Counted from the first letter of the stretch, positions 8,747 through 35,285 are shown. The stretch is DNA of 64,000 bases from Vicinamibacteria bacterium (GCA_964291235.2 OZ219816.1:1792001-1856000), one strand, 5' to 3'. A program made the numbers and translations. Notes: a model not told the origin generated them from the letters alone.

Positions 8747-8854
8747 GAAACCCTCCGGGGGAATGGGACGCCAGGGCGCTCCTGAAGCAGCGCCTCCCCA
8801 CACCCTTAGTGCTGACCCTAGCAGAAGTTACCCCGAATTTCTAAAGCGATGCTT

Positions 8855-8901
8855 TAGCAACCAGTGGCAAAACCCGCGTGGGGTTTCACCACAGGCTGTC
8901 A
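8855..8901. mobile_element. Mini derivative of the MITE-like family (two termini, almost no interior)
   Basis: tagcaaccagtggcaaaaccc...gggtttcaccacaggctgtca matches both ends of the 27627-27811 copy. Confidence 0.65.
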
Positions 8902-9139
8902 ACAGCCTGTGGTGAAACGCACGTGAGCACCGAGACGAGTGAGGCCCAGTTCTCCCGGTGGGGCCAGTTCTCCCGGTGGGGGCCCGGCTGACAAGGCGCG
9001 TGAGGGAGGAATACCGAGCGTATTTCGACCGAAACGCAACGATGAGCGCCTCGCAGAGGCGCGGCCAGTTCTCCCGGTGGGGGCCAGCCGGGATGCATCG
9101 CTCGTCGTATGCCGCGTGGGTTTTGCCACAGGCTGTTGA
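8899..9139. mobile_element. MITE-like repeat copy A (three 18-mer inserts)
   Basis: Ends tcaacagcctgtggtgaaac / gttttgccacaggctgttga; core gcgcgtgagggaggaataccg..tatttcgaccgaaacgcaacg shared with copies B and D. Confidence 0.8.
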
Positions 9140-9182
9140 GTCCGGGAGGGCAACCGGACGGAGCGGCCGCGGGCCGGAGGAG

Positions 9183-9965
9183 TCAGTCTTCCTTGACGTC
9201 CGTCCGCTTGCTCACCTCGAGGAAGGGTTTCACCAGGTCGAGCGGGAGCGGGAAGATGATCGTCGAGTTCTTCTCGGTAGCGATTTCGGTCAGGGTCTGG
9301 AGATATCGGAGCTGGGCTCCCAGCGGGTGTGTTCCGACCACTTCGGCTGCTCTGGCGAGCTGCGCGGAGGCCTGGAATTCGCCTTCCGCGTGGATGACCT
9401 TGGCGCGCTTTTCGCGTTCGGCCTCCGCCTGCCGCGCCAGCGCCCGGGTCATCTCGCTTGGGAGGTCCACGTGCTTGACCTCCACCGAGGCCACCTTGAT
9501 ACCCCAGGGATCGGTCTGCTGGTCGAGAATCCCCTGCAACGTGACGTTGAGCTGGTCGCGCTGGGAGAGCAGATCATCCAGTTCCACCTGGCCGAGAACG
9601 CTGCGGAGCGTGGTCTGGGCGAGCTGGGAGGTCGCGTAGAGGAAGTCCTCCACCTCGACGACCGCCTTGGTCGGGTTCACCACGCGGAAGAACACCACGG
9701 CATTCACCTTCACCGAAACGTTGTCGCGGGTGATGATGTCCTGCGGCGGAACGTCGAAGGCGACGAGCCGGAGGCTCATCCGCACCATCCGATCGATGGG
9801 TGAGAAGACGAGCACCAGGCCCGGCCCCCGGGGCGTGGGCAGCAGTTTGCCGAATCGGAAAATCACGCCGCGCTCGTACTCGTTCAGGACCTTGATCCAG
9901 TTGAGGACAAAGATCACCGCGAAGGCGATGGCAACGAGGGCTCCCAGGGGAAGTCCGAAGGTCAT
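9183..9965 (-). CDS. SPFH/stomatin-like (slipin) protein
   Basis: '[11 protein letters not shown]', '[19 protein letters not shown]', '[18 protein letters not shown]', 'QLRYLQTL'. Confidence 0.95.
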
Positions 9966-11314
9966 GAATCAACTCCTTGTGTGGCAGACCCGGGCGCGTC
10001 TGCCGACGCTGGGCCGACGCGAAGGGTAAGCCCTTCCACCGCCAGCACCCGGACGCGCTCACCGGTATTCACCGGATCGCTGGCGACGGCGTCCCAGAAC
10101 TCGCCGTGAACGAACACCTTGCCTTCGCCGCCCGACGGGATGTCACTGCGGACGGTGGCCACCAGGCCGATCATCCCCTCCTGGCCGGTCACCGGGGGAC
10201 GGCGCTGGGCGCGCACCACCAGTTGGCCGAGGAAAAACACCAGGACCACGAATACCAGGACGGACGGAACAACGAGGCCCCAGGTCAACGTCAACGCCGG
10301 AGTGGGCAGGGATTGCTCCTCAAAGAAGAAAAGTAGTCCAATCACCAGCGCAACCGTTCCCGAGAGCCCCATTATGCCGAACGAGGGGGTGAGCGCCTCC
10401 GCAGTCAGCAGACCAATGCCGGCGAGCAGCAGCAGCACCCCCAGGAGGCTGACGGGGAGGAAGTTGAGGCCGAAAGCGGCCAACAGCAGCGCGATGCCTC
10501 CGAGAATGCCCGGAATGAGCAGCCCCGGATTCGAGAACTCCAGGTAGAGCCCGAGCAGCCCGATCATCCCGAGGAGCACCGCCAGGTTCGGATTGGCGAT
10601 CACTGAAAGAGCCCGGTCGCGGAAACTCATTTCGGTCTGGACGACGAGCGCGTCGGCGGTGTCGAGCGTCACCTCGGTTCCGTCGATCCGGGTCACCGTC
10701 CGGCCGTGAATCGCAGCCAGGAACTCGCCGGCATCGTCGGCCATGAGGTCGATCAGACCGGCCTCGAGCGCCTCCGTCGCGGTCCAGCTACGCGCTTCGG
10801 TCACCCCCTGTTCCGCGAGGGCGACGTCGCGCCCGCGGCGCTCGGCGATCGATCGGAGGTATGCCGCAGCATCGGACTCGACCTTCCGGCTCAGGGTCTC
10901 CGGCATCTCGCCGCCGGTGCCCGCGATCGGGGTGGCGGCGCCCATGTTGGTCCCGGGCGCCATACCCGAGATGTCGGCGGCCAGAGTGATCAGATATCCC
11001 GCGGAAGCGGCCCGGGAACCCGAGGGACCCACATAGACGGCCACCGGCACCGCGCTGTTCAGGATCCCCTCGATGATCTCCCGCATCGCGGTGTCGAGGC
11101 CGCCCGGGGTATCGAGCCGCAACAGGACGAGTCCGGCGCCAGCCTCTTCCGCCGCCGCAATGGTGGTGAGCACCCGCCGCGCCGAAACCGAGTGAATGAT
11201 GTCCACCACATCGACCTGATGGACCTCCGCAGCCGCCGCGGGAATCGACGGCGCGGCAGCGATTCCGAGGGCCAGCCCGACGATGGAAAGGGTGGGGATC
11301 CGCGCGTTCGACAC
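9962..11314 (-). CDS. nfeD: NfeD family membrane-bound serine protease
   Basis: 'LDTPGG', 'RAASAG', '[12 protein letters not shown]', C-terminal OB fold '[12 protein letters not shown]'; overlaps the SPFH gene. Confidence 0.92.
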
Positions 11315-11316
11315 TC

Positions 11317-11793
11317 TCAGGAGGGTTTCCGATCGTGAATTGTGCGGAGTTCGCGGATCTCGAACTCGCGCTCGCCAACGGGTGTGTGAACGCTCACTTC
11401 GTCTCCCACCCGGGCACCCATGAGCGCCCTGCCGATCGGGGAGCCGGTGGAAACCTTGCCCACCGTGGCGTCCGCTTCCTCGCTCACCACGAGTTCGTAG
11501 CGGGACTCCCCGTCGGTGTCCAGGTCCACCACCACCACTTCGCTGCCGAGCGAAACCCGGTCCGCCGGGATGTTGTCCATGCTCACCATGGACAGATCCG
11601 CAAGTCGCCCCTTGAGTTGTGCGAGGCGGACGGCCACGTAGGTCTGCCGGTCCTTCGCGGCTTCGTACTCCGCGTTCTCGGAAAGGTCGCCGTGCTCGCG
11701 AGCCTCCTTGATCTGTTTGGGAAGCCGCAGATGCAGTTCTTCCTCGAGTTCACGCACCTCGGCCTCAAGACGGGCGCGGAAGGAGAGAGTCAC
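11317..11793 (-). CDS. greA: Transcription elongation factor GreA
   Basis: 'AREHGDLSENAEYEAAK', 'SPIGRALMG'. Confidence 0.92.
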   Translation of the reverse strand: MTLSFRARLEAEVRELEEELHLRLPKQIKEAREHGDLSENAEYEAAKDRQTYVAVRLAQLKGRLADLSMVSMDNIPADRVSLGSEVVVVDLDTDGESRYELVVSEEADATVGKVSTGSPIGRALMGARVGDEVSVHTPVGEREFEIRELRTIHDRKPS

Positions 11794-11977
11794 GGATTGC
11801 TGAAGCCTTTCTGGAATGAGAACCGAAGGAAATCAGAATAGCACCGCCGCAGCCCGGTTCGGGCGGCGCCCCTCCGGGAAGAGGCGGTAGCCGGGAGACC
11901 ACCGCCCTTGCAGCGCCGAGGACGAGCGGGCATGATCCGCACTCCGAATCCAATGGTGCAACCCCGGGAGGTTCTCC

Positions 11978-12631
11978 ATGAAACACATCACCAGCCGCCA
12001 ACGAACCGGGCGGCTGTCCACCAAACTGTCCGGCGCCGCGGCTCTCGGGCTCGCCGCCGCGCTGGCCAGCTTCGCCGGAACCCCTGACGCCATGGCGCAA
12101 GATGTCTCGCTCAGGGTCGGCGACAAGGCGCCCATGTTCCCGAATGCCCTGCCTTCGACCGCGGGCGAATCGGCGGGCGCGACAAAGCTCGACCTGCAAG
12201 CCGCGCTCGGCAAGAAGAACATCGTGCTCGCCTTCTACGTTGCCGACTGGACGGGTGGTTGAACGCTTCAGTTTTCGTCCTACAAGGACGACATCCAGAA
12301 GTTTCTGGATGCGGAAACCCAGGTCTTCGGGATCAGCGTCGATACCCCGTACTCGCAGTGGAATTGGCTCCAGAGCGTCGGCAAGGACTCCGGCATGATG
12401 GTGGAGGCGGCCACGCCGGGCGACCTGCCGGGTCTCGTTCTCCTCTCGGACCGCCAGTCGGAAGTGGTTGGCGCCTACGGCGTGAAGCCCCTCGAGATCA
12501 ACGGGGCGCGCTACGCATCGCGCGCGACCTTCGTCATTGATCGCGACGGGATCCTTCAGTACGTCAACTACGACTACCAGATCCGTGAGGACTACGAACC
12601 GTTGATGGAAGTTCTGGCCGGACTGGAATAG
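11978..12631 (+). CDS. Peroxiredoxin (AhpE/BCP-like) with signal peptide; in-frame TGA (12260-12262) at the peroxidatic Cys, probable selenocysteine
   Basis: ORF-track pieces 11978-12262 and 12395-12631 share a frame; readthrough gives 'VLAFYVADWTGG(U)TLQF...VFGISVDT...LLSD...RATFVIDRDG'. Confidence 0.85.
12275..12291 (+). promoter_or_regulatory. Candidate SECIS-like hairpin
   Basis: TCGTCCT-ACA-AGGACGA begins 12 nt after the UGA; the loop lacks the usual G. Confidence 0.4.
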
Positions 12632-12663
12632 TCACTTCCTCGAAACCGTCCCGCCCGCCGTCC

Positions 12664-13413
12664 GTGTCGTCCGCATCGTCGGCCCTCGTGATCGCCATGC
12701 GGCACGGTCGGGCGAACGCCATCGATCCGGCGCTGGTCGCCGAGTTGGGGGCGGGCCTCGATGAAGCCGAGCGGAGCGGCCGGCCGCTGGTCCTTACCGG
12801 AACCGATCGTTTCTTCTCGGCGGGCCTCGATCTCCAGGGATTGCCGGAGGATCGGCAGGAGATGGGCGCCTTCGTGGACGCCTTCGACGCGTTCGTGCGG
12901 CGGCTCTTCTGGTTCCCCTTCCCCACCGTTGCGGCGGTAAACGGGCACGCGGTCGCGGGAGGCGCCATCCTGGCGGCTGCCTGCGATGTCCGGATCGGGG
13001 CCGTCGGCAACTACCGGATCGGGGTTTCGGAGGTGCAGCTTGGGGTCATCTTTCCGGCGGCCGCCTTCGAAGTGCTCTCGGCGGCCATACCACCGGCGCG
13101 GACGGCGGAAGTTCTCTTGCGGGGGCGCCTCACCGGCCCCGAGGACGCGGTCTCGAATGGCTTCCTCCATGAACTTGCGGCTCCGGAAAGGCTGACCGCA
13201 ACGGCCGTGGAGCGCGCCGAGGAAATCGGAGCCCTGCCCCGGGAGGCCTACGTCCACACCAAGCGGGCGCTGCGGGCCGAATTCGCAGAGCGGGCGAGGG
13301 ATCAGAGCGCCGCAAAGCGCGAGCGGTTCCTGGACACCTGGTTCTCCGAAGAATCGAAAGCCCGGCGCGCCGCCATCCTGCGGGGTACGAAAAAGAAGCG
13401 CGGAACCGGCTGA
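12664..13413 (+). CDS. Enoyl-CoA hydratase/isomerase family protein
   Basis: 'ANAID', 'FFSAGLDL', 'PTVAAVNGHAVAGGAILAAACD', 'IGVSEVQLG'; start uncertain. Confidence 0.9.
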   Translation: MSSASSALVIAMRHGRANAIDPALVAELGAGLDEAERSGRPLVLTGTDRFFSAGLDLQGLPEDRQEMGAFVDAFDAFVRRLFWFPFPTVAAVNGHAVAGGAILAAACDVRIGAVGNYRIGVSEVQLGVIFPAAAFEVLSAAIPPARTAEVLLRGRLTGPEDAVSNGFLHELAAPERLTATAVERAEEIGALPREAYVHTKRALRAEFAERARDQSAAKRERFLDTWFSEESKARRAAILRGTKKKRGTG

Positions 13414-13494
13414 CCAGGAGCGCCAGCCTCCAGGCTGGCATCGCCGAGTTTCGCCTCGCGGTACGCGGCGATGCCGGCCGGAGGCCGGCGTTCC

Positions 13495-14328
13495 CTAGTT
13501 CGTGCTGTGCGCGTCGATCGCGGCGCGAATGGCCTTCACGGTGACCTCCGAGCGGTAGCGGAAGAGCTGGCGCCCCAACGACTTGGTTTGATCCAGAGGA
13601 TCCACGTCCACGCCGTTGATAGAGAAGAGACCGGCCTGACGACGCTCGGACGTGCGGATCGAATTCTGATCCACCGCCGCCATCATCGAGGTGATCGCGT
13701 AGTCGTCGTGAATTCCCTCGGGCGTCTGTTCCACGCCGCGCTCGGCGAGCCATGACTGGAGCGCCTGGTAGTCGTAGTACTCGGGGATGTAGTGGACGCC
13801 CGGGCTGCCCGTCCACTCGGCAGTGAGTTCTTCGGCAACCGCCTTCATGCCGGCCTGGTTGCCGCCACTGTCCCCAATGAAAATGACGTGTTGGAAGCCG
13901 CTGGCCTTGAGGCTGCGGGCAACGTCCCGGAGCACGGCCCGGAAGGTCTCCTGGCTGAGACCGACGGTTCCCGGATAGCGCATGTGACCGGTGGGGGGAT
14001 CGAAGTCGCCCTCCGGCACCAGTTTCAGAATCGGGGCCACGAGTGCGTTCCCAAGGTCCCTGGCGATCGCTTCCGTGACACCGCGCAGCAGCACGTTGTG
14101 CTTGCCGGTGACCAGATAGGGTCCGTTCTGCTCGACGCCACCGCTCGCGACGATGGCGGTGTGCTTGCCGTCCGCGATCAGATCGCGCACTTCCATCCAG
14201 GTGAGATCCTCGATGAAGACGCTGTCCCGGATCGGGATCGGACGCGGTTTGTCGGGCTCCGGACTCTGGGCGAATCCCAGAATCGGCATCGTCACGGAAA
14301 GGGCAATTACGGCGAGACCGGTGCGCAT
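13495..14328 (-). CDS. Creatininase family protein with signal peptide (paralog 1)
   Basis: 'EDLTWMEVRD', 'GGVEQNGPYLVTGKHN', 'GDSGGN', 'HDD'; ATG 14328 follows GGAG. Confidence 0.85.
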   Translation of the reverse strand: MRTGLAVIALSVTMPILGFAQSPEPDKPRPIPIRDSVFIEDLTWMEVRDLIADGKHTAIVASGGVEQNGPYLVTGKHNVLLRGVTEAIARDLGNALVAPILKLVPEGDFDPPTGHMRYPGTVGLSQETFRAVLRDVARSLKASGFQHVIFIGDSGGNQAGMKAVAEELTAEWTGSPGVHYIPEYYDYQALQSWLAERGVEQTPEGIHDDYAITSMMAAVDQNSIRTSERRQAGLFSINGVDVDPLDQTKSLGRQLFRYRSEVTVKAIRAAIDAHSTN

Positions 14329-14779
14329 GATCAGAAATCTCCTTCGAATGTTCCGAGGCCCGCGTTCCGGCGAGCCCGGACCGCTGACCATATCGCGGTC
14401 GCGTGACGGGGCTGTGCCGGCCACGAGGCCGGCCCCGTCCTCCGGGTGGGAGCTCCGGTGCCTGTGCGACGTGCGGCTGAGGAGTTGGCTGTCCCACCGG
14501 GCAAGAAAGAAATGGCAGCGAACTCGGTTCGCTGCCCACCTGACCAGGGGGAATGCGTGAAAGGGCCCCCCCCCTTTCACAAGAGGAAAACCACTCCGAC
14601 TCGGAACTCGCCGCCGGGCGCCAACCAGAGCCGCGGGCTGCGGAGATCTGTCCGGCGCCCCCACGCGCCCAAGGGAGTTTCGAGTCCGGCGCAAAACGCC
14701 GGGCGGTTTGGAAGGGGGCGCCCCTTGCAACGCATCAACGTTCGAAGGGTGCCGAGCCGCATGCCCCCTTCCGGACCGC

Positions 14780-15604
14780 CTAGTGCGAAGCGATCGCGGC
14801 GCGGATGGCCTTCACGGTCACTTCCGAGCGGTAGCGGAAGAGGCGCATTCCCCAGGCGCGGGTCTGGTCCAGCGGGTCGAGGTCCACGCCGTTGATCCGG
14901 AAGAGGCCGGCCTGCCGGCGCTCCGCGGTCCGGATGGAGTCCGGGTCCACGGCGGCCATCATCGCGGCCATCGCGAATTCGTCGTGCAGGCCCTCCGGCT
15001 CCTCCTTGATCCCGTTATCGGAGAGCCAGGTCCGCAGGCCCCTGACGTCGTAGAACTCGGGAATGAAGTGGACGCCGGGAGACCCGTTCCACTCGGCGTG
15101 CATTTCCTCCGCCACCGCCGTCATCCCGGCCTGGTTTCCACCGCTGTCGCCGAGGAAGATGATGTGCTGGAAGCCGCTCGCCCTGAGACTGCGGGCAACG
15201 TCCCGCAACACGGCTCGGAATGTCTCATCGCTGAGCCCGACGGTGCCGGGATAACGCATCATCCCGGTGGGAGGATCGAAGTCGCCTTCGGGCACCAGCT
15301 TGAGAATCGGGGCTACCAGCGCGTTCCCGAGATCCCTGGCGATTGCTTCGGTGGTGCCGCGCAGCAGCACGTTGTGCTTGCCGGTGACCAGATACGGGCC
15401 GTTCTGCTCGATGCCACCACTCGCGACAATGGCGGTGTCCTTGCCGTTCGCGATCAGGTCGCGCACCTCCATCCAGGTGAGATCCTCGATGAAGACACTG
15501 TCCCGGATCGGGATCGGACGCGGTTTGTCGGGCTCCGGACTCTGCGCGGCTCCCAGAACCGGCAGGGCCAGGGAAAGAACGATGGTAGTGAGAAGCGTGC
15601 GCAT
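14780..15604 (-). CDS. Creatininase family protein with signal peptide (paralog 2)
   Basis: Same motifs as paralog 1 and long identical stretches with it. Confidence 0.85.
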   Translation of the reverse strand: MRTLLTTIVLSLALPVLGAAQSPEPDKPRPIPIRDSVFIEDLTWMEVRDLIANGKDTAIVASGGIEQNGPYLVTGKHNVLLRGTTEAIARDLGNALVAPILKLVPEGDFDPPTGMMRYPGTVGLSDETFRAVLRDVARSLRASGFQHIIFLGDSGGNQAGMTAVAEEMHAEWNGSPGVHFIPEFYDVRGLRTWLSDNGIKEEPEGLHDEFAMAAMMAAVDPDSIRTAERRQAGLFRINGVDLDPLDQTRAWGMRLFRYRSEVTVKAIRAAIASH

Positions 15605-15638
15605 GACGTGAAACTCCTTCGCGTATCGGAAAGGCTAC

Positions 15639-15950
15639 TAGCAGCCTGTGGGCAAAGTCACGCGGCATTCCCGAGCTACGAGGTCTGGAAGTCGGCTAGC
15701 GCCAACCCCCGTCCCTCGTGCTCAAGGGGTCTCCGCCGGGCTCTCGCCCGGCTCCGGAAACGAACGGCGATGCATCCCGGCTGAAACGGGCCGCTACGCG
15801 ACCCTCATCGTTGCGTTTCGGTCGAAATACACTCGGTATTCCTCCCTCACGCGCCGCCCCCACCGGGAGAACTGGGTCAGCCAGGCGCCTCCCCCCCACC
15901 GGGAGAACTGGCGTTCTCGGTGCTCACGTCACTTTGTCCACAGGCTACTA
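15639..15950. mobile_element. MITE-like repeat copy B (inverted relative to A; two 18-mer inserts and a ~90-bp nested insert)
   Basis: Ends tagcagcctgtgggcaaag / ctttgtccacaggctacta; shared core cgttgcgtttcggtcgaaatacac.cggtattcctccctcacgcgcc. Confidence 0.8.
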
Positions 15951-16673
15951 GACGCGCAACCCTGGGGCGATTGCGTGGTGGCGATAGTCCTCGCCCGGCA
16001 TCTCGACAACGCGACAGGCTTCGTGCAGCAGGGAAACGCCGCGTACCGTGATCTGGTCCGCGAGGGTCGTCTGCTTGGCCGCCTGCAGGGGAAACGCCGT
16101 CGTGCAGACGAGGATGGCCTCACCCTGGATGCAGCGGTTCAGAATGTAGAGAAACCGCTCCTGCACCCGGGCGTCCCACCCGGTGTCGGCCCCCAACTGA
16201 TCGAGCACCACGATCTCGGCGCGGGCCAGCGCATCCAACCGGCGCTCGTCAACCAGGAGCTGGTCGTTCCACACCCGCTGCACCTCTCTCAGGAGCCGCG
16301 GGACGTACTCGAACCGCGCCCGCACCGCGATCTTCCGGTCATAGAGGATGTGGCGGAGAGCCGCGACCGCCAGGTGCGTCTTGCCGACCCCGGCCGGGCC
16401 GCTGATCAGGAGTCCCGCCTTGACCACGGGAAAGGCATCGGCCCATTTGAATACGATCTGTTTGACCCGCTTCGGCCCACCCTCGAGGTCGTCGAAGGCG
16501 TCGAAACGCATGCGTTCGGCGTGGTCCGGCGCCACCCCGATTTCCTGGAGACGGGCGGGGCCCGGAACCACGTCCCGGCACCGGCAGGCGACGACCGCCG
16601 CAGAACCGTCCGCACGGGGAGCGGCCTTCCACCCGGTATCGCCGCAATCGGGACAGGTCGGGGCCGCTTGCAA
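15948..16673 (-). CDS. DnaC/IstB-like AAA+ ATPase with N-terminal Cys motif
   Basis: 'CPDCGDTGW...ACRC', Walker A 'GPAGVGKTH', Walker B-like 'VVLDQLG', C-terminal 'GEDYR'. Confidence 0.8.
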   Translation of the reverse strand: MQAAPTCPDCGDTGWKAAPRADGSAAVVACRCRDVVPGPARLQEIGVAPDHAERMRFDAFDDLEGGPKRVKQIVFKWADAFPVVKAGLLISGPAGVGKTHLAVAALRHILYDRKIAVRARFEYVPRLLREVQRVWNDQLLVDERRLDALARAEIVVLDQLGADTGWDARVQERFLYILNRCIQGEAILVCTTAFPLQAAKQTTLADQITVRGVSLLHEACRVVEMPGEDYRHHAIAPGLRV

Positions 16674-16747
16674 GAGGGTTCTTTCAGGGCGCGGAACGGC
16701 CGGCGGAATCGAACCTCACCGGCCGCATCATTGTTTCGGCCCGTATC

Positions 16748-17185
16748 CTACGAATTTCGGGAACCGGGCGGGGAAGCAGCGGTGGTGGTTCCGGCGTCCG
16801 AGTTGGTCGCGGCGGGAACGATGTCCCTTCGCGGCAACCGCACCAGGGCGTTCTTGGCGCGCTCGCTCAGTGCGTTTTCTTCCCGCGACAGCTCCCGATG
16901 GATGAACTCGGTGAACTGGGTGATCTCTTTCTGCATGCGCTGCATCTTGGCCCGCATGTTCAAGATGATGTCCACGCCGGCGAGATTCACTCCGAGTTCC
17001 CGAAGATTGAGGATGGTCTGGAGCTGTTCAAGATCCTCATCGGTGTAAACGCGCGTGTTTCCCTCGGTACGCGAAGGCGCCAGCAACCCCTCGCGCTCAT
17101 AGAGGCGCAGAGTCTGCGGATGAATCCCGAACAGCTCGGCCACCGCGCTGATCATGTAAACGCCCTTGCGACGCTCGGCGCTCAT
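16748..17185 (-). CDS. hspR: HspR-like MerR family heat-shock repressor
   Basis: 'YMISAVAELFGIHPQTLRLYEREGLLAPSRTEGNTRVY', 'ELGVNLAGV'; downstream of dnaK-dnaJ; GAGGAG RBS. Confidence 0.88.
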   Translation of the reverse strand: MSAERRKGVYMISAVAELFGIHPQTLRLYEREGLLAPSRTEGNTRVYTDEDLEQLQTILNLRELGVNLAGVDIILNMRAKMQRMQKEITQFTEFIHRELSREENALSERAKNALVRLPRRDIVPAATNSDAGTTTAASPPGSRNS

Positions 17186-17261
17186 GGGGACTCCTCGGTG
17201 TCTGTCCCGGTAGCTCGGTGAGAACGGCTCGGAAATGCCATGAGATTGCCGGGACAGACTG

Positions 17262-18383
17262 CTAGGAACGAAGCTTCTCACGGAGCGCCTCGCGAGGCGA
17301 CTCCGGGTAGCGCTGCTCCAGTTCCCTGACGAGATCCCGGGAACGATCATCCCGGATCTCGGGAATGTGGATGCGGACCTCGAGGAAGAGGTCTCCGCGG
17401 CCGTCACCGCGAGTCGAAGGAACACCGCGCCCGGCGAGGCGCAGTCGGGTTCCAGGCTGGACTCCGGGCGGTAGCCTCACCGCGACGTTGCCGGAAAGCG
17501 TGGGCACCTCGACGCGTCCGCCGAGCGAGGCCTCGGCAAGCGTCAGCGGTAGCGGGCAGACGAGGTTGTCGCCGCGGCGTTCAAGAACCGGATGGGGGGT
17601 CACCTCGACGTGCAACCGGAGATCTCCCGGTGCTTCGCCCGGCAGCCGCTCGTGTCCTTGCCCCGCCACGACGACGGTCGCTCCGTCCGCCACCCCGGCC
17701 GGCAGGCGCGCGACCACCCGAACCGAGCGGATCCGATGACCCTGTCCGGCGCAGGAGGAGCAGGCGGTGTGAAACAGCAGCCCTTGCCCACCGCAGCGGC
17801 GGCACGGACGGGCAAACACCATGTGCCCGTAGCGCCGGAGGCGCCGGCCGGCGCCGCTACAGGCGCTGCACTCGAGCCCCTGCGGGCTGGCTTCGCCAAC
17901 CGGCCGCTCGCCCCGGCCCCCGCATGGCCCACACGTCTCGCGCCGGTTGATGCGGTGCCGGATCTGCTTCCCCTCCAGCGATTCGACAAAGGAAATCCGC
18001 ACGCGGGCGTGAATATCGGGATCGTCCTCGGCGGGTTCGGACCCGGTTCCCTCGGAGGCGCCGAAAATCTCGTGGAGCGCCCACTCTTCCTTCGCCGGCT
18101 CCTCGCCGAAATCGAAACCGGCGAAACCATAGTGAACCCGCTGGACCCGGGCGGGCGTCGGCTCGGCGCCCCCTCGGCGGTCGTACTCCGCCCGGCGCTC
18201 GGGATCGCCGAGAACTTCGAACGCGCGCTGGATCGCCTGGAATCGCTCTTCGACAACGCGGTCGTTGGGATTCAGATCCGGATGCAGGCGCCGCGCAAGA
18301 CGCCGGTACGCCTGCCGGATGCGCAGGACATCCGCATCCCGCCCAACCCCCAGGACCGCGTAGTAGTCGGCAGGAGCGGGCAT
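17262..18383 (-). CDS. dnaJ: DnaJ co-chaperone
   Basis: J domain with HPD, four CxxCxGxG repeats, DnaJ C-terminal domain. Confidence 0.9.
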   Translation of the reverse strand: MPAPADYYAVLGVGRDADVLRIRQAYRRLARRLHPDLNPNDRVVEERFQAIQRAFEVLGDPERRAEYDRRGGAEPTPARVQRVHYGFAGFDFGEEPAKEEWALHEIFGASEGTGSEPAEDDPDIHARVRISFVESLEGKQIRHRINRRETCGPCGGRGERPVGEASPQGLECSACSGAGRRLRRYGHMVFARPCRRCGGQGLLFHTACSSCAGQGHRIRSVRVVARLPAGVADGATVVVAGQGHERLPGEAPGDLRLHVEVTPHPVLERRGDNLVCPLPLTLAEASLGGRVEVPTLSGNVAVRLPPGVQPGTRLRLAGRGVPSTRGDGRGDLFLEVRIHIPEIRDDRSRDLVRELEQRYPESPREALREKLRS

Positions 18384-18412
18384 GGGCGCCGGTTGGCTGG
18401 CGGCGTTGGCGA

Positions 18413-20344
<1,932 letters not shown>

Positions 20345-20410
20345 GGGCTTGCTGAAACTCCTGCTGATTGGAATCCGGAGCCGGGCAAATCCCGGCCTTA
20401 GTTAGGCCGA

Positions 20411-20440
20411 AGTATAAGATATGAGTGGAGTCTTGTCAAG
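20411..20440 (-). promoter_or_regulatory. sigma70 promoter of dnaK overlapped by a HAIR-like HspR operator
   Basis: Minus strand TTGACA (20439-20434)-N17-TATACT (20416-20411); CTTGACA-N7-ACTCATA (20440-20420) resembles CTTGAGT-N7-ACTCAAG. Confidence 0.8.
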
Positions 20441-20585
20441 GCGTACGAAGTCCGCAGGCTCCGCCGGTGGCGGTCTCCGATGCTGCCGAACCGGGGCGAT
20501 CCGCGCGGCTCTCGGGTCCCGGTGACGGCCCACTCCGCCCCGGCGCCGTCAGGCGTTCGGGGGCGGGACCGGCGGCGGCGGCGCG

Positions 20586-21476
20586 CTACTGCAGCAGTGC
20601 CCGGATCGCCGGTTCGAGCGTCTCCCGCTCCTGGAAGTTCACGAAATGGCGCGTGATCGTTCCATCGCGTCCCGCGAGGAACAGCGTCGGGAAGATGTTC
20701 ACGTTGCCGAGTTCGGCGCGATCCTCTTCGGTCAGGTGAAGGTTCTCGAAGGTCACCCCTCCCTTCTCCTGATGAGCCTGGCGGTCGGCGTCGGTGTAAG
20801 GCAGCTTGAGCACCCGGTCGGCGTTGAGGCCGACGATGGTGAGTCCCTCGTCCGCGAGATCCTGGTGGAGCGCCTGCAGCACCGGGGCGATCTGAACGCA
20901 GGGAGGACAGTTGGTGAACCACACGTAAACGAGCGTCGCATCGTTCATGAGGCCGGCAACCGTGGACTCACCGCCACCAAAGCTCTCGCCGGCGACCTCC
21001 GGGAGCATCCGGCCTTCCCAGCCCGTGAGACTCCGGCTCACCGCCTCGGCGAAACGGTCGTCGGCGCGGATCATGGCCTCGTCGATGGACACCAGGTTTC
21101 CGTCCCCGTCGCGGACCAGGAACTTCGGGACCCGCGGGTCGGACTCCATGATCCGCAACACGATGTCGGCGGCCTCTTCGCCGTAGAGCGAGAACTGCCC
21201 CGAAATCTCGGAGAGGGTCGGCAACCGGTCTTCACGGCCTTCGAACTCGGCGATGAACAGCGGCATCCGGAAGAAGACGTCGTTGAGCCGTCCGAGAGCT
21301 TGCTGTTCGTCGGGGGCCTGGAAGCGCTCCACGAGCGCCGAGAGAAGCAGGCGTTCCCCCGGCTGCAGCGTATCTCGCACGTGCTCGAGGATCCGGCGCT
21401 CCGCGTCGGATCCCTGCGCCGCGGCAGTGGCCGGAACGGTCAGGAAAAAAGCGAGAACAAGGCCGAGATAACGCAT
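20586..21476 (-). CDS. TlpA/ResA-like thioredoxin with extra N-terminal domain, secreted
   Basis: Signal peptide; 'VYVWFTNCPPC', 'IVGLNAD', 'IFPTLFLAGRDG'. Confidence 0.8.
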   Translation of the reverse strand: MRYLGLVLAFFLTVPATAAAQGSDAERRILEHVRDTLQPGERLLLSALVERFQAPDEQQALGRLNDVFFRMPLFIAEFEGREDRLPTLSEISGQFSLYGEEAADIVLRIMESDPRVPKFLVRDGDGNLVSIDEAMIRADDRFAEAVSRSLTGWEGRMLPEVAGESFGGGESTVAGLMNDATLVYVWFTNCPPCVQIAPVLQALHQDLADEGLTIVGLNADRVLKLPYTDADRQAHQEKGGVTFENLHLTEEDRAELGNVNIFPTLFLAGRDGTITRHFVNFQERETLEPAIRALLQ

Positions 21477-21531
21477 CGGCGGATTGTAGTTTTTTGCTCG
21501 ACAACCGGGTTCCGGATGCCCCGTTGGGGGC

Positions 21532-21657
21532 TAACCGCCGGTGGTGAAACCCCCGTGAGCGCCGAGAGGGGCGAGGCCCAGTTCTCCCGGTGGGGGGGCG
21601 GTTCAGGCGGGATGCATCGCCGCTCGAACGCCGCCGGGGTTTTGCCACAGGCGGTTA
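21532..21657. mobile_element. MITE-like repeat copy C (internally deleted; one 18-mer)
   Basis: Ends taaccgccggtggtgaaacccc / ggggttttgccacaggcggtta. Confidence 0.78.
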
Positions 21658-26138: not shown

Positions 26139-27629
26139 TTGCTACTCCCTTCCCGCTCCGATTTCCGCGCGCTCTCGAAACGGGCGAACCTGATTCCCGT
26201 TCGGCGGGAGATCCTCGCCGACTGCGATACCCCGGTATCGACCTTTCTCCGGGTAGGGAATCGGGGGCCGGCATTCCTGATGGAGTCGATAGAGGGCGGC
26301 GAGAGCGTCGCCCGGTATTCCTTTCTGGGATCGAGGCCACGACTCATCGTCGAGAGTCGCGGGACCGAAGTCAGGCGCCGTGATCTGCGCGATGGCCGGA
26401 CCGAAACTCTCGACAGCAACGATCCCCTGTCGGCGCTGCGGGACATGCTCAAGGAAGTGAGCCCGGCCAACGTCGAGGGGCTTCCCCCGTTTCACGGCGG
26501 CTTCGTCGGCTATCTCGCCTACGACGCGGTACGGCGCTTCGAGAACCTCCCGGACACCGTCGAGGACTCGCTCCGCATTCCCGATGCGGCGTTTCTGTTG
26601 GCCGACAGCGTGCTGGTCTTCGACCGCGCCCGCAACGTCATCCAGGTGGTGGTGAACGCCAGCGTCCCCGATGAGAGCCTCGCCGACCAGGCCTACGACG
26701 CCGCCGCGGCCCAGATCGAAGCAACCGTCGGCGAAATCCGGGCGCCGCTTCCCTATCGACTGGGCCTCCCGGGGGGCGCCCCCGGGCCGGCGCCCGAACC
26801 GGTTTCCAACACCAGCCGCGAGCGGTATCTGGAAATGGTGCGACGGGCCAAGGACTACGTGGCCGCCGGCGACATCATCCAGGTCGTTCCCTCGCAGCGC
26901 TTCGAGACACCGCTCACGGTCCACCCCTTCGACTTTTACCGGGCGCTCCGGGTGGTGAACCCCTCGCCCTACATGTACTACCTGGACTTTGACGGGCTGG
27001 TGGTTGCGGGCGCCTCGCCGGAAATGATGACCCGCACCGAGGACGGCACGATCGAAACCCGGCCGATCGCCGGAACCCGCCCACGCGGGAGCACTCCCGA
27101 AGAAGACGCCGCTCTAGCCGACGAACTCCTCGCCGACGAAAAGGAACGCGCCGAACACCTGATGCTGGTGGACCTCGCTCGCAATGACATCGGCCGGGTG
27201 GCCGGGTACGGCCAGGTCGAGGTCGAGGACTTCATGAGCATCGAGCGCTACTCGCACGTGATGCACATCGTGTCCCGGGTGCGGGGGAAACTCGGCCCCG
27301 ACATGGACTCCTTCGACGCGCTCCGCGCCACCTTTCCGGCCGGAACGCTCTCCGGCGCCCCCAAGATCCGCGCCATGGAAATCATCGATGAACTCGAGAC
27401 CGAGCGGCGCGGGGTGTACGGCGGCGCGGTGGGCTACTTCTCCTACAGCGGCGCCTCCGACACCGCCATCGCCATCCGGACACTGGTAGCGCAGGGGGGG
27501 GTCGGCTACTTCCAGGCAGGGGGCGGCGTCGTCGCGGACTCCGACCCGGCCGCGGAGTACGACGAAAGCTGCCGAAAGGCGGATGCGGTGCTTGCCGCCC
27601 TCCGCATGGCCCAGGAGGGTCTGGACTAG
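26139..27629 (+). CDS. trpE: Anthranilate synthase component I
   Basis: 'LMESIEGGE...RYSF', 'NPSPYMYY', 'PIAGTRPRG', 'KERAEHLMLVDLARND', 'GTLSGAPKIRAM'; followed by trpG. Confidence 0.92.
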   Translation: MLLPSRSDFRALSKRANLIPVRREILADCDTPVSTFLRVGNRGPAFLMESIEGGESVARYSFLGSRPRLIVESRGTEVRRRDLRDGRTETLDSNDPLSALRDMLKEVSPANVEGLPPFHGGFVGYLAYDAVRRFENLPDTVEDSLRIPDAAFLLADSVLVFDRARNVIQVVVNASVPDESLADQAYDAAAAQIEATVGEIRAPLPYRLGLPGGAPGPAPEPVSNTSRERYLEMVRRAKDYVAAGDIIQVVPSQRFETPLTVHPFDFYRALRVVNPSPYMYYLDFDGLVVAGASPEMMTRTEDGTIETRPIAGTRPRGSTPEEDAALADELLADEKERAEHLMLVDLARNDIGRVAGYGQVEVEDFMSIERYSHVMHIVSRVRGKLGPDMDSFDALRATFPAGTLSGAPKIRAMEIIDELETERRGVYGGAVGYFSYSGASDTAIAIRTLVAQGGVGYFQAGGGVVADSDPAAEYDESCRKADAVLAALRMAQEGLD

Positions 27630-27811
27630 CAGCCTATGGCAAAACCCCCGCGGCGTTCGACGGGCGATCCATCCCGGCTGAACCACTCCGCTTCGCTTCG
27701 TTCTGCGTTGCGTTTCGGTCGAAATACACCCGGTATTCCTCCCTCACGCGCCTTGTCAGCCGGGCGCCTCACCCGTCTCGGCGCTCACGGGGGTTTCACC
27801 ACAGGCTGCTA
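27627..27811. mobile_element. MITE-like repeat copy D (185 bp, no 18-mer; usable as the empty reference)
   Basis: Ends tagcagcctatggcaaaacc / ggtttcaccacaggctgcta; begins on the trpE TAG stop. Confidence 0.82.
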
Positions 27812-35209: not shown

Positions 35210-35285
35210 GGGCGGCTAGCTCAGCTGGGAGAGCGCGGCGTTCGCAATGCCGAGGTCACGGGTTCGATCCCCGTGCCGTCCACCA
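35210..35285 (+). tRNA. tRNA-Ala (anticodon CGC)
   Basis: Acceptor stem GGGCGGC/GCCGTCC with G3:U70, anticodon loop TTCGCAA, T arm GGTTCGATCC, encoded CCA; 76 nt. Confidence 0.96.

Follow-up and report, generated by a model that had tools for sequence, protein, structure and literature searches.

The 64,000-nt stretch analysed here (the window) belongs to the genome designated G000; other G-numbers denote related genomes. It contains four copies of a 185-bp miniature element (MITE), three of which carry an 18-mer, CCAGTTCTCCCGGTGGGG, with GC as its usual next two bases. Copy A (8900..9138, plus strand) is 239 bp long, which corresponds to 185 bp plus three 18-bp units, and takes a long hairpin fold. 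Copy B (15766..15951, minus strand) carries two 18-mers, and at its far end a different repeat (tttccggagc...) takes the place of the MITE sequence. Copy C (21532..21657, plus strand) is a 126-bp deletion derivative. Copy D (27627..27811, minus strand) is 185 bp long, has TA at both ends, lacks the 18-mer and serves as the empty reference; its predicted fold is rod-like (z = -6.45). The 18-mer matches the window exactly at six sites, whereas 0.19 matches are expected from shuffled sequences and none of 100 shuffles reaches six. When the window is searched with up to three mismatches, no 18-mer is found besides the six exact ones.

The first two 18-mers of copy A (8946..8963 and 8964..8981, plus strand) form a tandem dimer at MITE position 46 (gaggc^gcccgg), which is present in seven MITE copies genome-wide. 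The third (9065..9082, plus strand) precedes ..cagccggg at the gcgcgg^ site, where empty copies have tt and filled copies have gc after the unit. The 18-mers of copy B are located at position 57 (ctgac^; 15858..15875, minus strand), where empty copies have aag, filled copies have gcg after the unit and nine genome copies are found, and at position 39 (gagaacg^gggaggc; 15894..15911, minus strand), where it is the sole copy in the genome. The 18-mer of copy C (21578..21595, plus strand) lies at the junction of an internal MITE deletion, which is mapped to positions 46/123. As the initial annotation reported, all six are exact and lie within copies of one MITE, copy D (gaggc/gcccggctgac) represents the empty site, and copy C has lost part of its interior, the 18-mer marking the point of deletion.

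Approximately 41 near full-length copies of the MITE are found in the genome, with a modal length of 185 bp and ta...ta ends. The family has terminal inverted repeats, TA flanks, a uniform size, many copies and no coding capacity, and its termini are paired over 26 bp in the fold. No DDE_3 (IS630-type) transposase is found in G000. Twenty-nine of the 41 full-length copies are exactly empty at all 18-mer sites. The 18-mer occupies at least nine places in the MITE, in both orientations; six of nine sites touch unpaired positions, which make up 51 of the 185 positions overall, too few sites for a statistical test. Comparison of filled with empty copies confirms that the 18-mer is an insert without target duplication, at several sites and also as tandem dimers. 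The insertion, previously described as clean, is exact at gaggc/gccc, but elsewhere the net gain of 18 bp is accompanied by a change of 1-3 flanking bases: tat becomes g[18]gc, aag becomes [18]gcg, tt becomes [18]gc and gat becomes a[18]gg, where [18] is the unit. Likewise, the single orientation relative to the MITE holds for all six 18-mers of the window, but the opposite orientation is found at two MITE sites genome-wide. The haplotype [18]gtccggctgac[18]gcg is common to three MITE subfamilies with different termini. When the 18-mer is itself tested as a MITE, no inverted termini are found, and no duplication distinguishes filled from empty sites. Deletion junctions in the genome include 46/112 (n=4), 57/123 (n=2), 37/157 (n=4) and others. 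Direct 18-mers recombine and thereby delete the MITE interior, as in copy C of the window.

In the whole genome, the 18-mer is present in 83 exact copies and in 160 copies with up to two mismatches, and it ranks third among the most frequent 18-mers. Like REP and REPIN sequences, it is a short extragenic sequence with tens to hundreds of copies: 138 of the 160 copies lie outside crude ORFs and the remaining 22 near ORF ends. Its reported invariance is true of the window but not of the genome, in which copies with one, two and three mismatches number 38, 39 and 34. Similarly, its confinement to the MITE is a property of the window; among the 160 copies, 71 are located in the MITE (MITE-A), 25 in a 120-bp REP-hairpin repeat and 64 elsewhere, most of them immediately 3' of GCCGGCC-N4-GGCCGGC hairpins or inside hairpin loops. 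The 18-mer is therefore not specific to the MITE. A loose regular-expression count of the REP hairpin, which gives 3,815 mostly spurious matches, was dropped.

The 355 exact copies examined for flanks represent 83 distinct contexts, in which the next base is G in 73 of 83 and the preceding base is G or C in 77 of 83. The ends of the unit are identical at single-base resolution in contexts that are not homologous (MITE position 46, the foot of the REP hairpin and hairpin loops), and tandem dimers hold an exact 18-nt register. Inverted pairs with spacers of 9, 13 and 20 nt exist; most copies are singlets or direct/tandem. Three variants, A3G (11 copies), C11G (7) and T6C (5), recur across many unrelated contexts. 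The statement that the MITE has diverged and the 18-mer has not is borne out: in full-length MITEs, 22 of 24 units are exact, whereas 19% would be expected at the divergence of the backbone, and mismatches amount to 2 of 432 bases in the units versus 670 of 7,542 in the MITE, so that the 18-mer is about 19 times better conserved than its surroundings. Taken alone, the 18-mer forms no hairpin; its folding energy is -1.7 kcal/mol (z = -0.09), a value matched by 89 of 200 shuffles.

Among 41 related genomes searched, 21 contain the 18-mer, including 15 of 15 of the same genus and 20 of 24 of the family. Four further genera of the family hold it, and copies per genome range from 8 to about 1,566 (G013, 1,566; G004, 776; G001, 747; G018, 259; G019, 70). 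It is found in none of 16 genomes from two other families of the same order. Single exact matches outside the family are seen in Georgenia, Pseudarthrobacter, a gammaproteobacterial MAG and one viral contig. These matches are compatible with chance, since about 17 are expected for a random 18-mer in 596 Gb. A literature search under 'Marinacidobacterium' returned nothing.

Orthologous sites in sister species differ by single 18-mers, indicating that turnover is real. The claim of the initial annotation that an active process writes the 18-mer is supported in part; a dedicated writer is not needed for much of what the window shows. At one orthologous locus, the sequences of two species agree along roughly 230 nt and differ only in the 18-mer, in three bases next to it and in one further base close by; any conversion tract must therefore be very short. 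Locus 2 is filled in G001 and empty in both G013 and G008, so that either one gain or two identical losses are needed. In each of the three cleanest single-unit differences, the unit is present in G001, in which a RAYT is found, and absent in G013. G004 and G008 carry other elements where the hairpin-loop event took place and so give it no polarity. Four species share an orthologous MITE in which the 18-mer is fixed at two of four sites; its internal haplotype pairs G001 with G004, and the 3' flank pairs G001 with G013. The 18-mer also occupies the same MITE sites in different genera, indicating that some sites are old. Over 400 kb of synteny, G013 has 112 18-mers and G001 has 45, and whole-element gaps hold 47 of those of G013. 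Because the 18-mer rides as a module in its carriers, most of the change in copy number represents amplification or loss of carriers.

An insertion sequence of the IS110 family integrates specifically at the 18-mer. In G000, each of the five copies of this element interrupts an 18-mer, with CC as a 2-nt overlap; over four genomes (G000, G014, G004 and G013), this holds for 15 of the clade's 16 loci. The intact target is CCCCACCGGG; in G000 the left junction reads ...gagcCCCC/tatagg and the right junction ggaaagt/CCACCGGG, with a two-base core common to the two. A stem-loop adjoins the target, in that all five occupied 18-mers of G000 abut GCCGGCC-N4-GGCCGGC or a close variant; in G014, one copy is inserted in a MITE-borne 18-mer. 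The leader of the element contains CCGGGAG and GCCCCGGTG, both of which are invariant in three lineages and match the 18-mer target, while the 8-10 nt spacer between them varies. To judge from these sequence matches, the leader may encode a bridge RNA; Rfam gives no match at the IS locus. Among 28 family genomes the clade is found in only 8, and G001, with its 747 18-mer copies, is not one of them.

G000 also contains a single-copy RAYT (NF047646, 92 bits). The exact 18-mer is present at none of 20 RAYT loci and diverged copies at three; several of these loci are flanked by the hairpin GCCGGCC-N4-GGCCGGC instead. No Y1_Tnp match is found in G013, G004, G018 and G019, despite their 1,566, 776, 259 and 70 copies. 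RAYT is therefore rejected as a simple driver, because it is not located beside the 18-mer and because abundance is independent of its presence. None of RAYT, reverse transcriptase and the IS110 clade tracks the abundance of the 18-mer. No TnpB is found in G000, and Rfam detects only a tRNA in the window. The earlier remark that no candidate enzyme is encoded in the window holds in a limited sense, in that no hit falls in the window for any of the five families searched across the genome; the genome itself encodes both RAYT and an IS110-family recombinase that recognises exactly the 18-mer.

We tentatively favour, at somewhat less than even confidence in the whole, an explanation in which the 18-mer is a constrained, lineage-wide repeat that is borne by carriers, copied in patches and targeted by IS110. 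According to this explanation, the 18-mer is a sequence-constrained short interspersed repeat of a marine Vicinamibacteria family, REP-like or like the neisserial dRS3 in kind. It is an optional module in TA-flanked MITEs and beside GC-rich REP-type hairpins. Filled MITE subfamilies are inherited and amplified, and 18-mers would travel from one carrier copy to another in short patches, through gene conversion or homologous exchange, in which case a net gain of exactly 18 bp with 1-3 overwritten flanking bases is expected. The haplotype common to three subfamilies and the discord between interior and flank in the orthologous MITE of four species speak for such patches. The first arrival at a new site may be a templated short-patch copy from an existing 18-mer, probably by template switching or repair with G/C microhomology at hairpin-prone sites rather than by enzymatic cut-and-paste. 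The near-invariance of the 18-mer may reflect constraint as the recognition site of a hypothetical host factor, which the IS110 element would have come to target. Some observations are not readily accommodated. The sharp ends and the exact register of dimers are easier to explain by an end-defining enzyme, microhomology-guided copying should leave ragged ends, and the recurrence of few variants in many contexts is expected of a population of replicating units. The near-identity of two species around one 18-mer leaves room for a very short conversion tract only. Neither a donor-recipient pair nor a template-switch intermediate is observed.

The strongest alternative is one that we consider unlikely though by no means negligible. 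According to this alternative, the 18-mer, or 18-21 nt when the G/C flanks are counted, is an ultra-short mobile unit in its own right, carried as single-stranded DNA by a strand-transferase. The enzyme would be either RAYT, working on the 3' side of hairpins, or the recombinase of IS110, through half-matched recombination of small single-stranded circles. The same ends in unrelated contexts, exact tandem dimers, the lack of target duplication and the few variants recurring in many contexts agree with it, as do the target-like preference in the 83 flank contexts (G at +1, G or C at -1) and the many sites located on the loop side of hairpins or at their 3' foot. The genome has both RAYT and an IS110 recombinase recognising exactly the 18-mer, and the three cleanest differences are present in G001, with RAYT, and absent in G013, in which no Y1 is found; three events are, however, too few to tie gains to RAYT. 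Single-stranded circles and half-match off-target insertion are reported for IS621 (10.64898/2026.08.31.748434). RAYT genes, however, are flanked by the REP hairpin and have the exact 18-mer at 0 of 20 loci, and copy number is independent of RAYT and of the IS110 clade. The 18-mer lacks a hairpin of its own (-1.7 kcal/mol), whereas to our knowledge the known HUH elements require one. Precise strand transfer would not give 1-3 overwritten flanking bases, and simple exchange at the IS110 core would leave GGGG on the left side of new copies, where it is not observed. A full self-propagating reading, in which a hairpin-less single-stranded unit would be copied to the 3' side of hairpins by a strand-transferase resident in the genome (either RAYT or, in half-matched mode, the IS110 bridge recombinase), is less probable still. 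The 18-21-nt unit would then be the smallest known self-propagating DNA element. If so, new safe landing sites for IS110 would be seeded in neutral MITEs and REPs, and an insertion sequence or host machinery would write its own target sites.

It is very improbable that the 18-mers are ancestral to the MITE and REP-type repeats and that the empty sites arose by repeated precise loss. Occupation of the same MITE sites in different genera and fixation at two of four sites in the orthologous MITE of four species agree with such an origin, but 29 of 41 full-length MITEs are empty everywhere, the sites are many and each is rare, and no direct repeats bound the unit to drive precise deletion. In addition, locus 2 is filled in G001 and empty in G013 and G008, and the A/T bases of the empty state (tat, aag, tt) agree with the MITE consensus. 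Even less probable is the writing of the 18-mer from an RNA template at nicks or breaks by a reverse transcriptase or telomerase-like enzyme, as had been suggested for this locus. The fixed sequence, the tandem units and the small target deletions or overwrites at the junctions would suit such an enzyme, but no RVT_1 match is found in G000 (2 contigs, estimated 90% complete), and no conserved RNA gene that contains the 18-mer and could be its source is seen. An assembly, adapter or primer artefact, against which a screen had been advised, is hardly credible: 21 of 41 related genomes, from many independent assemblies, contain the 18-mer, which belongs to coherent repeat families, has orthologous copies common to species and is split by the IS at a fixed dinucleotide.

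The assertion that no named element behaves in this way is too strong, because REP, BIME, dRS3/NIME and IS110 target repeats are close in kind. dRS3 is an attachment site of IS110-family recombinases, and it is an inverted repeat, whereas the 18-mer is not self-complementary. We know of no description, for dRS3, of clean 18-bp inserts at many positions of a TA-MITE. BIMEs of enterobacteria and BOX elements of pneumococci consist of short modules in variable number, such as boxB with zero to several copies. Their variable module, however, stands in one fixed place, whereas the 18-mer is found in at least nine MITE places and in unrelated repeats. The 18-mer resembles the REP/REPIN-RAYT system in being short, extragenic and highly repeated, in persisting vertically over a bacterial family, in having a master sequence with few recurrent variants and in the presence of a single-copy RAYT in the genome, but differs from it in that the 18-mer is not palindromic, does not flank RAYT and has an abundance independent of RAYT. 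dRS3/NIME is, like the 18-mer, an approximately 20-bp repeat with hundreds of copies that bounds variable modules in intergenic mosaics and is involved in rearrangements (PMC1797815, PMC3454330, PMC9778887). According to another report, an IS110-family element inserts only into one short conserved intergenic sequence, which adjoins a GC-rich stem-loop of the ISPpu10 type (10.64898/2026.03.19.712850). The element described here resembles such REP-targeting IS110 elements (IS621; ISPpu10 of Pseudomonas putida) in the hairpin beside the target, the 2-nt overlap and the target-matching leader, but its 18-mer is separable from the hairpin and also occurs alone inside MITEs.

REP, dRS3 and BIME modules are common short interspersed repeats, and the system described here bears on how such repeats reach new sites. 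The 18-bp unit offers sharp ends, with empty and filled alleles side by side, and because sister species differ by single units, it is possible to date gains and losses and to relate them to gene content. The nested direct repeats, by recombining, are an origin of MITE deletion derivatives. In the 18-mer, a recombinase of the IS110 family (bridge-RNA type) has a natural target that exists in very many copies, and its occurrence with and without an adjacent stem-loop bears on the choice of safe sites by IS110-type recombinases.

The initial annotation placed a fixed 18-base sequence (the 18-mer, or unit) at six positions in the window, 8946-8963, 8964-8981, 9065-9082, 15858-15875, 15894-15911 and 21578-21595, and all six are confirmed as exact matches, with no further match at up to three mismatches and a chance expectation of 0.19 per window. 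The source genome (G000; 3.45 Mb in two contigs, with the window at G000:C2:1792001-1856000) contains 83 copies without a mismatch and 38, 39 and 34 copies with one, two and three mismatches respectively, and simulating contig C2 with a second-order Markov model yields zero matches at two mismatches or fewer. The 18-mer ranks third by frequency among all 18-mers of the genome, above every 18-mer of the MITE that carries it. At up to one mismatch, it is present in all 15 genomes of the same genus and in 20 of the 24 genomes of the family, at 8 to approximately 1,566 copies per genome, and it is found in none of 16 genomes from two other families of the same order. Public contigs with the 18-mer carry titles naming marine Vicinamibacteria and 'Candidatus Marinacidobacterium' MAGs. 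Because the 18-mer occurs genome-wide, throughout the genus and the family, and in these public contigs, it is not a peculiarity of the window, and an artefact, which had been named among the results that would overturn the observation, is ruled out.

Four loci were read and all genomic relatives aligned to define the carrier MITE. The element is 185 bp long and TA-flanked, its paired termini span approximately 26 bp, and it folds into a long rod (-54.3 kcal/mol, z = -6.45). Its lengths in the genome are 185, 203, 221 and 239 bp, which correspond to 185 bp plus zero to three units of 18 bp. In the window, copy A (8900-9138) contains a tandem dimer and one further 18-mer, copy B (15766-15951) contains two, copy C (21532-21657) has been reduced by deletion to 126 bp, its junction marked by the 18-mer, and copy D (27627-27811) is empty. 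When the insertion sites are numbered on copy D, 19 units are located at position 46 and nine at position 57 in the forward orientation, 11 at position 157 and two at position 37 in the reverse orientation, and one each at positions 39 and 123; the relatives add sites at approximately 76-78, 118-123 and 139. Deletion forms with the 18-mer at the junction join positions 46 and 112 (four copies), 57 and 123 (two copies) or 37 and 157 (four copies), and further deletion junctions also consist of an 18-mer. Such forms, including copy C of the window, would be left by recombination between two 18-mers, either direct or nested.

An element of approximately 65 bp directly upstream of copy A (8837-8901) consists solely of the two MITE termini (tagcaaccagtggcaaaaccc...gggtttcaccacaggctgtca); it carries no 18-mer and is a minimal derivative produced by deletion. 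In MITE copies at 15740-15766 of the window and at G000:C2:1054339-1054667, the far end is replaced or interrupted by a nested sequence of a second kind (tttccggagc...); at the latter locus the insert is approximately 110 bp long and has a hairpin of its own. Seven 71-bp units, each composed of the right-hand end of the MITE and an 18-mer at position 157, are arranged in tandem in the related genome G013 (G013:C4:3582628-3583150; positions 1-520 of extracted locus L139). At gathering score, Rfam matches the window only at 35210-35282, a tRNA gene (59.1 bits).

The 18-mer is far more constrained than its carrier. The MITE backbone differs from the majority consensus at 670 of 7,542 positions (8.9%) in 41 near full-length copies, whereas the 24 units in 12 filled copies differ at only 2 of 432 positions; units with more than three mismatches would escape this count, yet none of those counted carries two or three. 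Exact units account for 22 of these 24, as compared with an expected 19%. Among diverged copies genome-wide, the variants A3G (11 times), C11G (seven times) and T6C (five times) recur across many unrelated contexts.

The MITE is not the only carrier. Of 160 copies in the source genome at up to two mismatches, 71 are located in the MITE, 25 in a 120-bp repeat around the hairpin GCCGGCCTCCAGGCCGGC, and 64 elsewhere; most of the last, when inspected by eye, lie immediately 3' to comparable hairpins (...GGCCGGC^[18]^G(T/C)TCC, where [18] is the unit) or in the loops of other GC-rich hairpins. Outside crude ORFs are 138 of the 160, and the remaining 22 are close to ORF ends. A tandem array at G000:C2:1720154-1720702, with a period of approximately 137 bp, is built from the 120-bp hairpin repeat and one diverged 18-mer per unit.

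The junctions were surveyed for 355 exact 18-mers from the genome and 114 public loci, which represent 83 distinct flank contexts. The base following the 18-mer is G in 73 of these contexts, and the rest mostly run into another unit; the second base is C in 51, and in 77 a G or C precedes the unit. An insert of precisely 18 bp is seen at MITE position 46 and at the foot of the hairpin. Elsewhere, sites likewise gain a net 18 bp, but the adjoining bases are changed relative to empty copies, always towards G/C: tat becomes g[18]gc, aag becomes [18]gcg, tt becomes [18]gc, gt or at becomes [18]gc, gat becomes a[18]gg, and aa becomes [18]gg.

Comparison of related genomes indicates how the copy number changes. 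G013 and G001 are approximately 95% identical, and across 400 kb of syntenic sequence they contain 112 and 45 units, respectively. The copy number is changed in part by the carrier, 47 of the 112 units being located in whole elements missing from G001, which represents a MITE burst; 12-14 units are at orthologous positions in both genomes. Certain orthologous MITEs have been replaced, have become another subfamily by conversion, or have inverted at their site. At locus A200597 (G013:C4, approximately 3,600,600), the MITE is inverted between the two genomes with a difference of three 18-mers (54 bp), which suggests either an inversion in place, between the terminal repeats, or a replacement. 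Three MITE subfamilies, the termini of which differ by compensated changes, share the internal haplotype [18]gtccggctgac[18]gcg. Four species have one MITE in common at an orthologous locus, with two of its unit sites fixed and two polymorphic; its internal haplotypes pair G001 with G004, and its 3' flank pairs G001 with G013. At three loci a single unit is present in G001 and missing in G013 within nearly identical surroundings. G008 is likewise empty at one of them, for which the simplest reading is a gain in the G001 line. At another, the two genomes differ over approximately 230 nt only in the unit itself, three bases next to it and one further base nearby. Units therefore come or go singly over the time in which species diverge.

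The 18-mer also serves as the target of an IS110-family element. This element (approximately 1.55 kb; its transposase is 420 aa long, and its 260-nt leader may encode a bridge RNA) is present in five copies in the source genome, at G000:C2:869027-870573 and at 909k, 1237k, 1778k and 2041k, the nearest approximately 13 kb upstream of the window start, and each of them interrupts an 18-mer adjacent to a REP hairpin. The left junction is ...gggagcCCCC|tatagg and the right junction is ggaaagt|CCACCGGGAGAACTGGgccggcc; the overlap is 2 nt (CC), and the uninterrupted target, CCCCACCGGGAGAACTGG, adjoins the REP hairpin. The same truncated 18-mer is found at the same distance at 15 of 16 loci of transposase relatives with at least 64% identity (G014, G004 and G013), the copy at the sixteenth being more diverged, and one G014 copy is inserted in a MITE-borne 18-mer. 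Distant IS110 clades (37-43% identity) have no such 18-mer. In the leader, CCGGGAG and GCCCCGGTG are invariant over three IS lineages and the intervening 8-10 nt vary, which fits guide segments of a putative bridge RNA; no Rfam family matches the IS locus. The target resembles that reported for ISPpu10 in combining a short conserved sequence with an adjacent GC-rich stem-loop (10.64898/2026.03.19.712850). The clade is found in only 8 of 28 family genomes, G001 not among them. The IS110 element is a user of the 18-mer, with no sign that it writes it.

A RAYT (REP-associated tyrosine transposase) is encoded by one gene of the source genome outside the window (NF047646, 92 bits at a cut-off of 80; 243 aa; G000:C1:15737-17618, corresponding to 640-2521 of extracted locus L001, with the gene at 1096-1827). 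On either side of the gene, a 120-121-bp repeat is arrayed in tandem (3.3 and 5.1 copies); this repeat contains the hairpins GCCGGCCTCCAGGCCGGC and CCCCGCGAAGCGGGG and probably constitutes the genome's REP/REPIN population. RAYT homologues are present in 15 of 28 family genomes. Because none of 20 RAYT loci contains an exact 18-mer, and no Y1 transposase is found in genomes with 1,566, 776, 259 and 70 units, the repeat proper to RAYT is the hairpin and not the 18-mer. No reverse transcriptase, TnpB-type zinc ribbon or DDE_3 transposase is found in the source genome.

We tentatively favour recombination as the source of the units, a reading that is possible rather than probable. Spread to the same site in other carrier copies would proceed by short gene-conversion tracts, and first arrival at a new site by templated short-patch copying, in which G/C microhomology would act as a guide at hairpin-prone places. 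Such homology-guided copying would yield both a net gain equal to the heterology and the accompanying changes in flanking bases, a combination that precise strand transfer does not predict. Strand transfer belongs to the main rival, in which an enzyme-defined single-stranded unit is moved by RAYT or the IS110 recombinase; it appears rather unlikely, although the sharp unit ends, exact tandem register and recurrent variants are better explained by it than by recombination.

By type, the 18-mer belongs with REP/dRS3-like repeats and IS110 attachment sites, and it is embedded in mosaic elements. It agrees with an IS110 target repeat in the fixed insertion position, the two-base core and the adjacent GC-rich stem-loop; it departs from a REP/RAYT repeat in palindromy, RAYT linkage and co-occurrence. 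To our knowledge, and at the level of published abstracts, one fixed 18-bp module at nine or more MITE positions, in both orientations, and in unrelated repeats across several genera has not been described previously. What is added here is a repeat nested inside a TA-flanked MITE, together with its IS.
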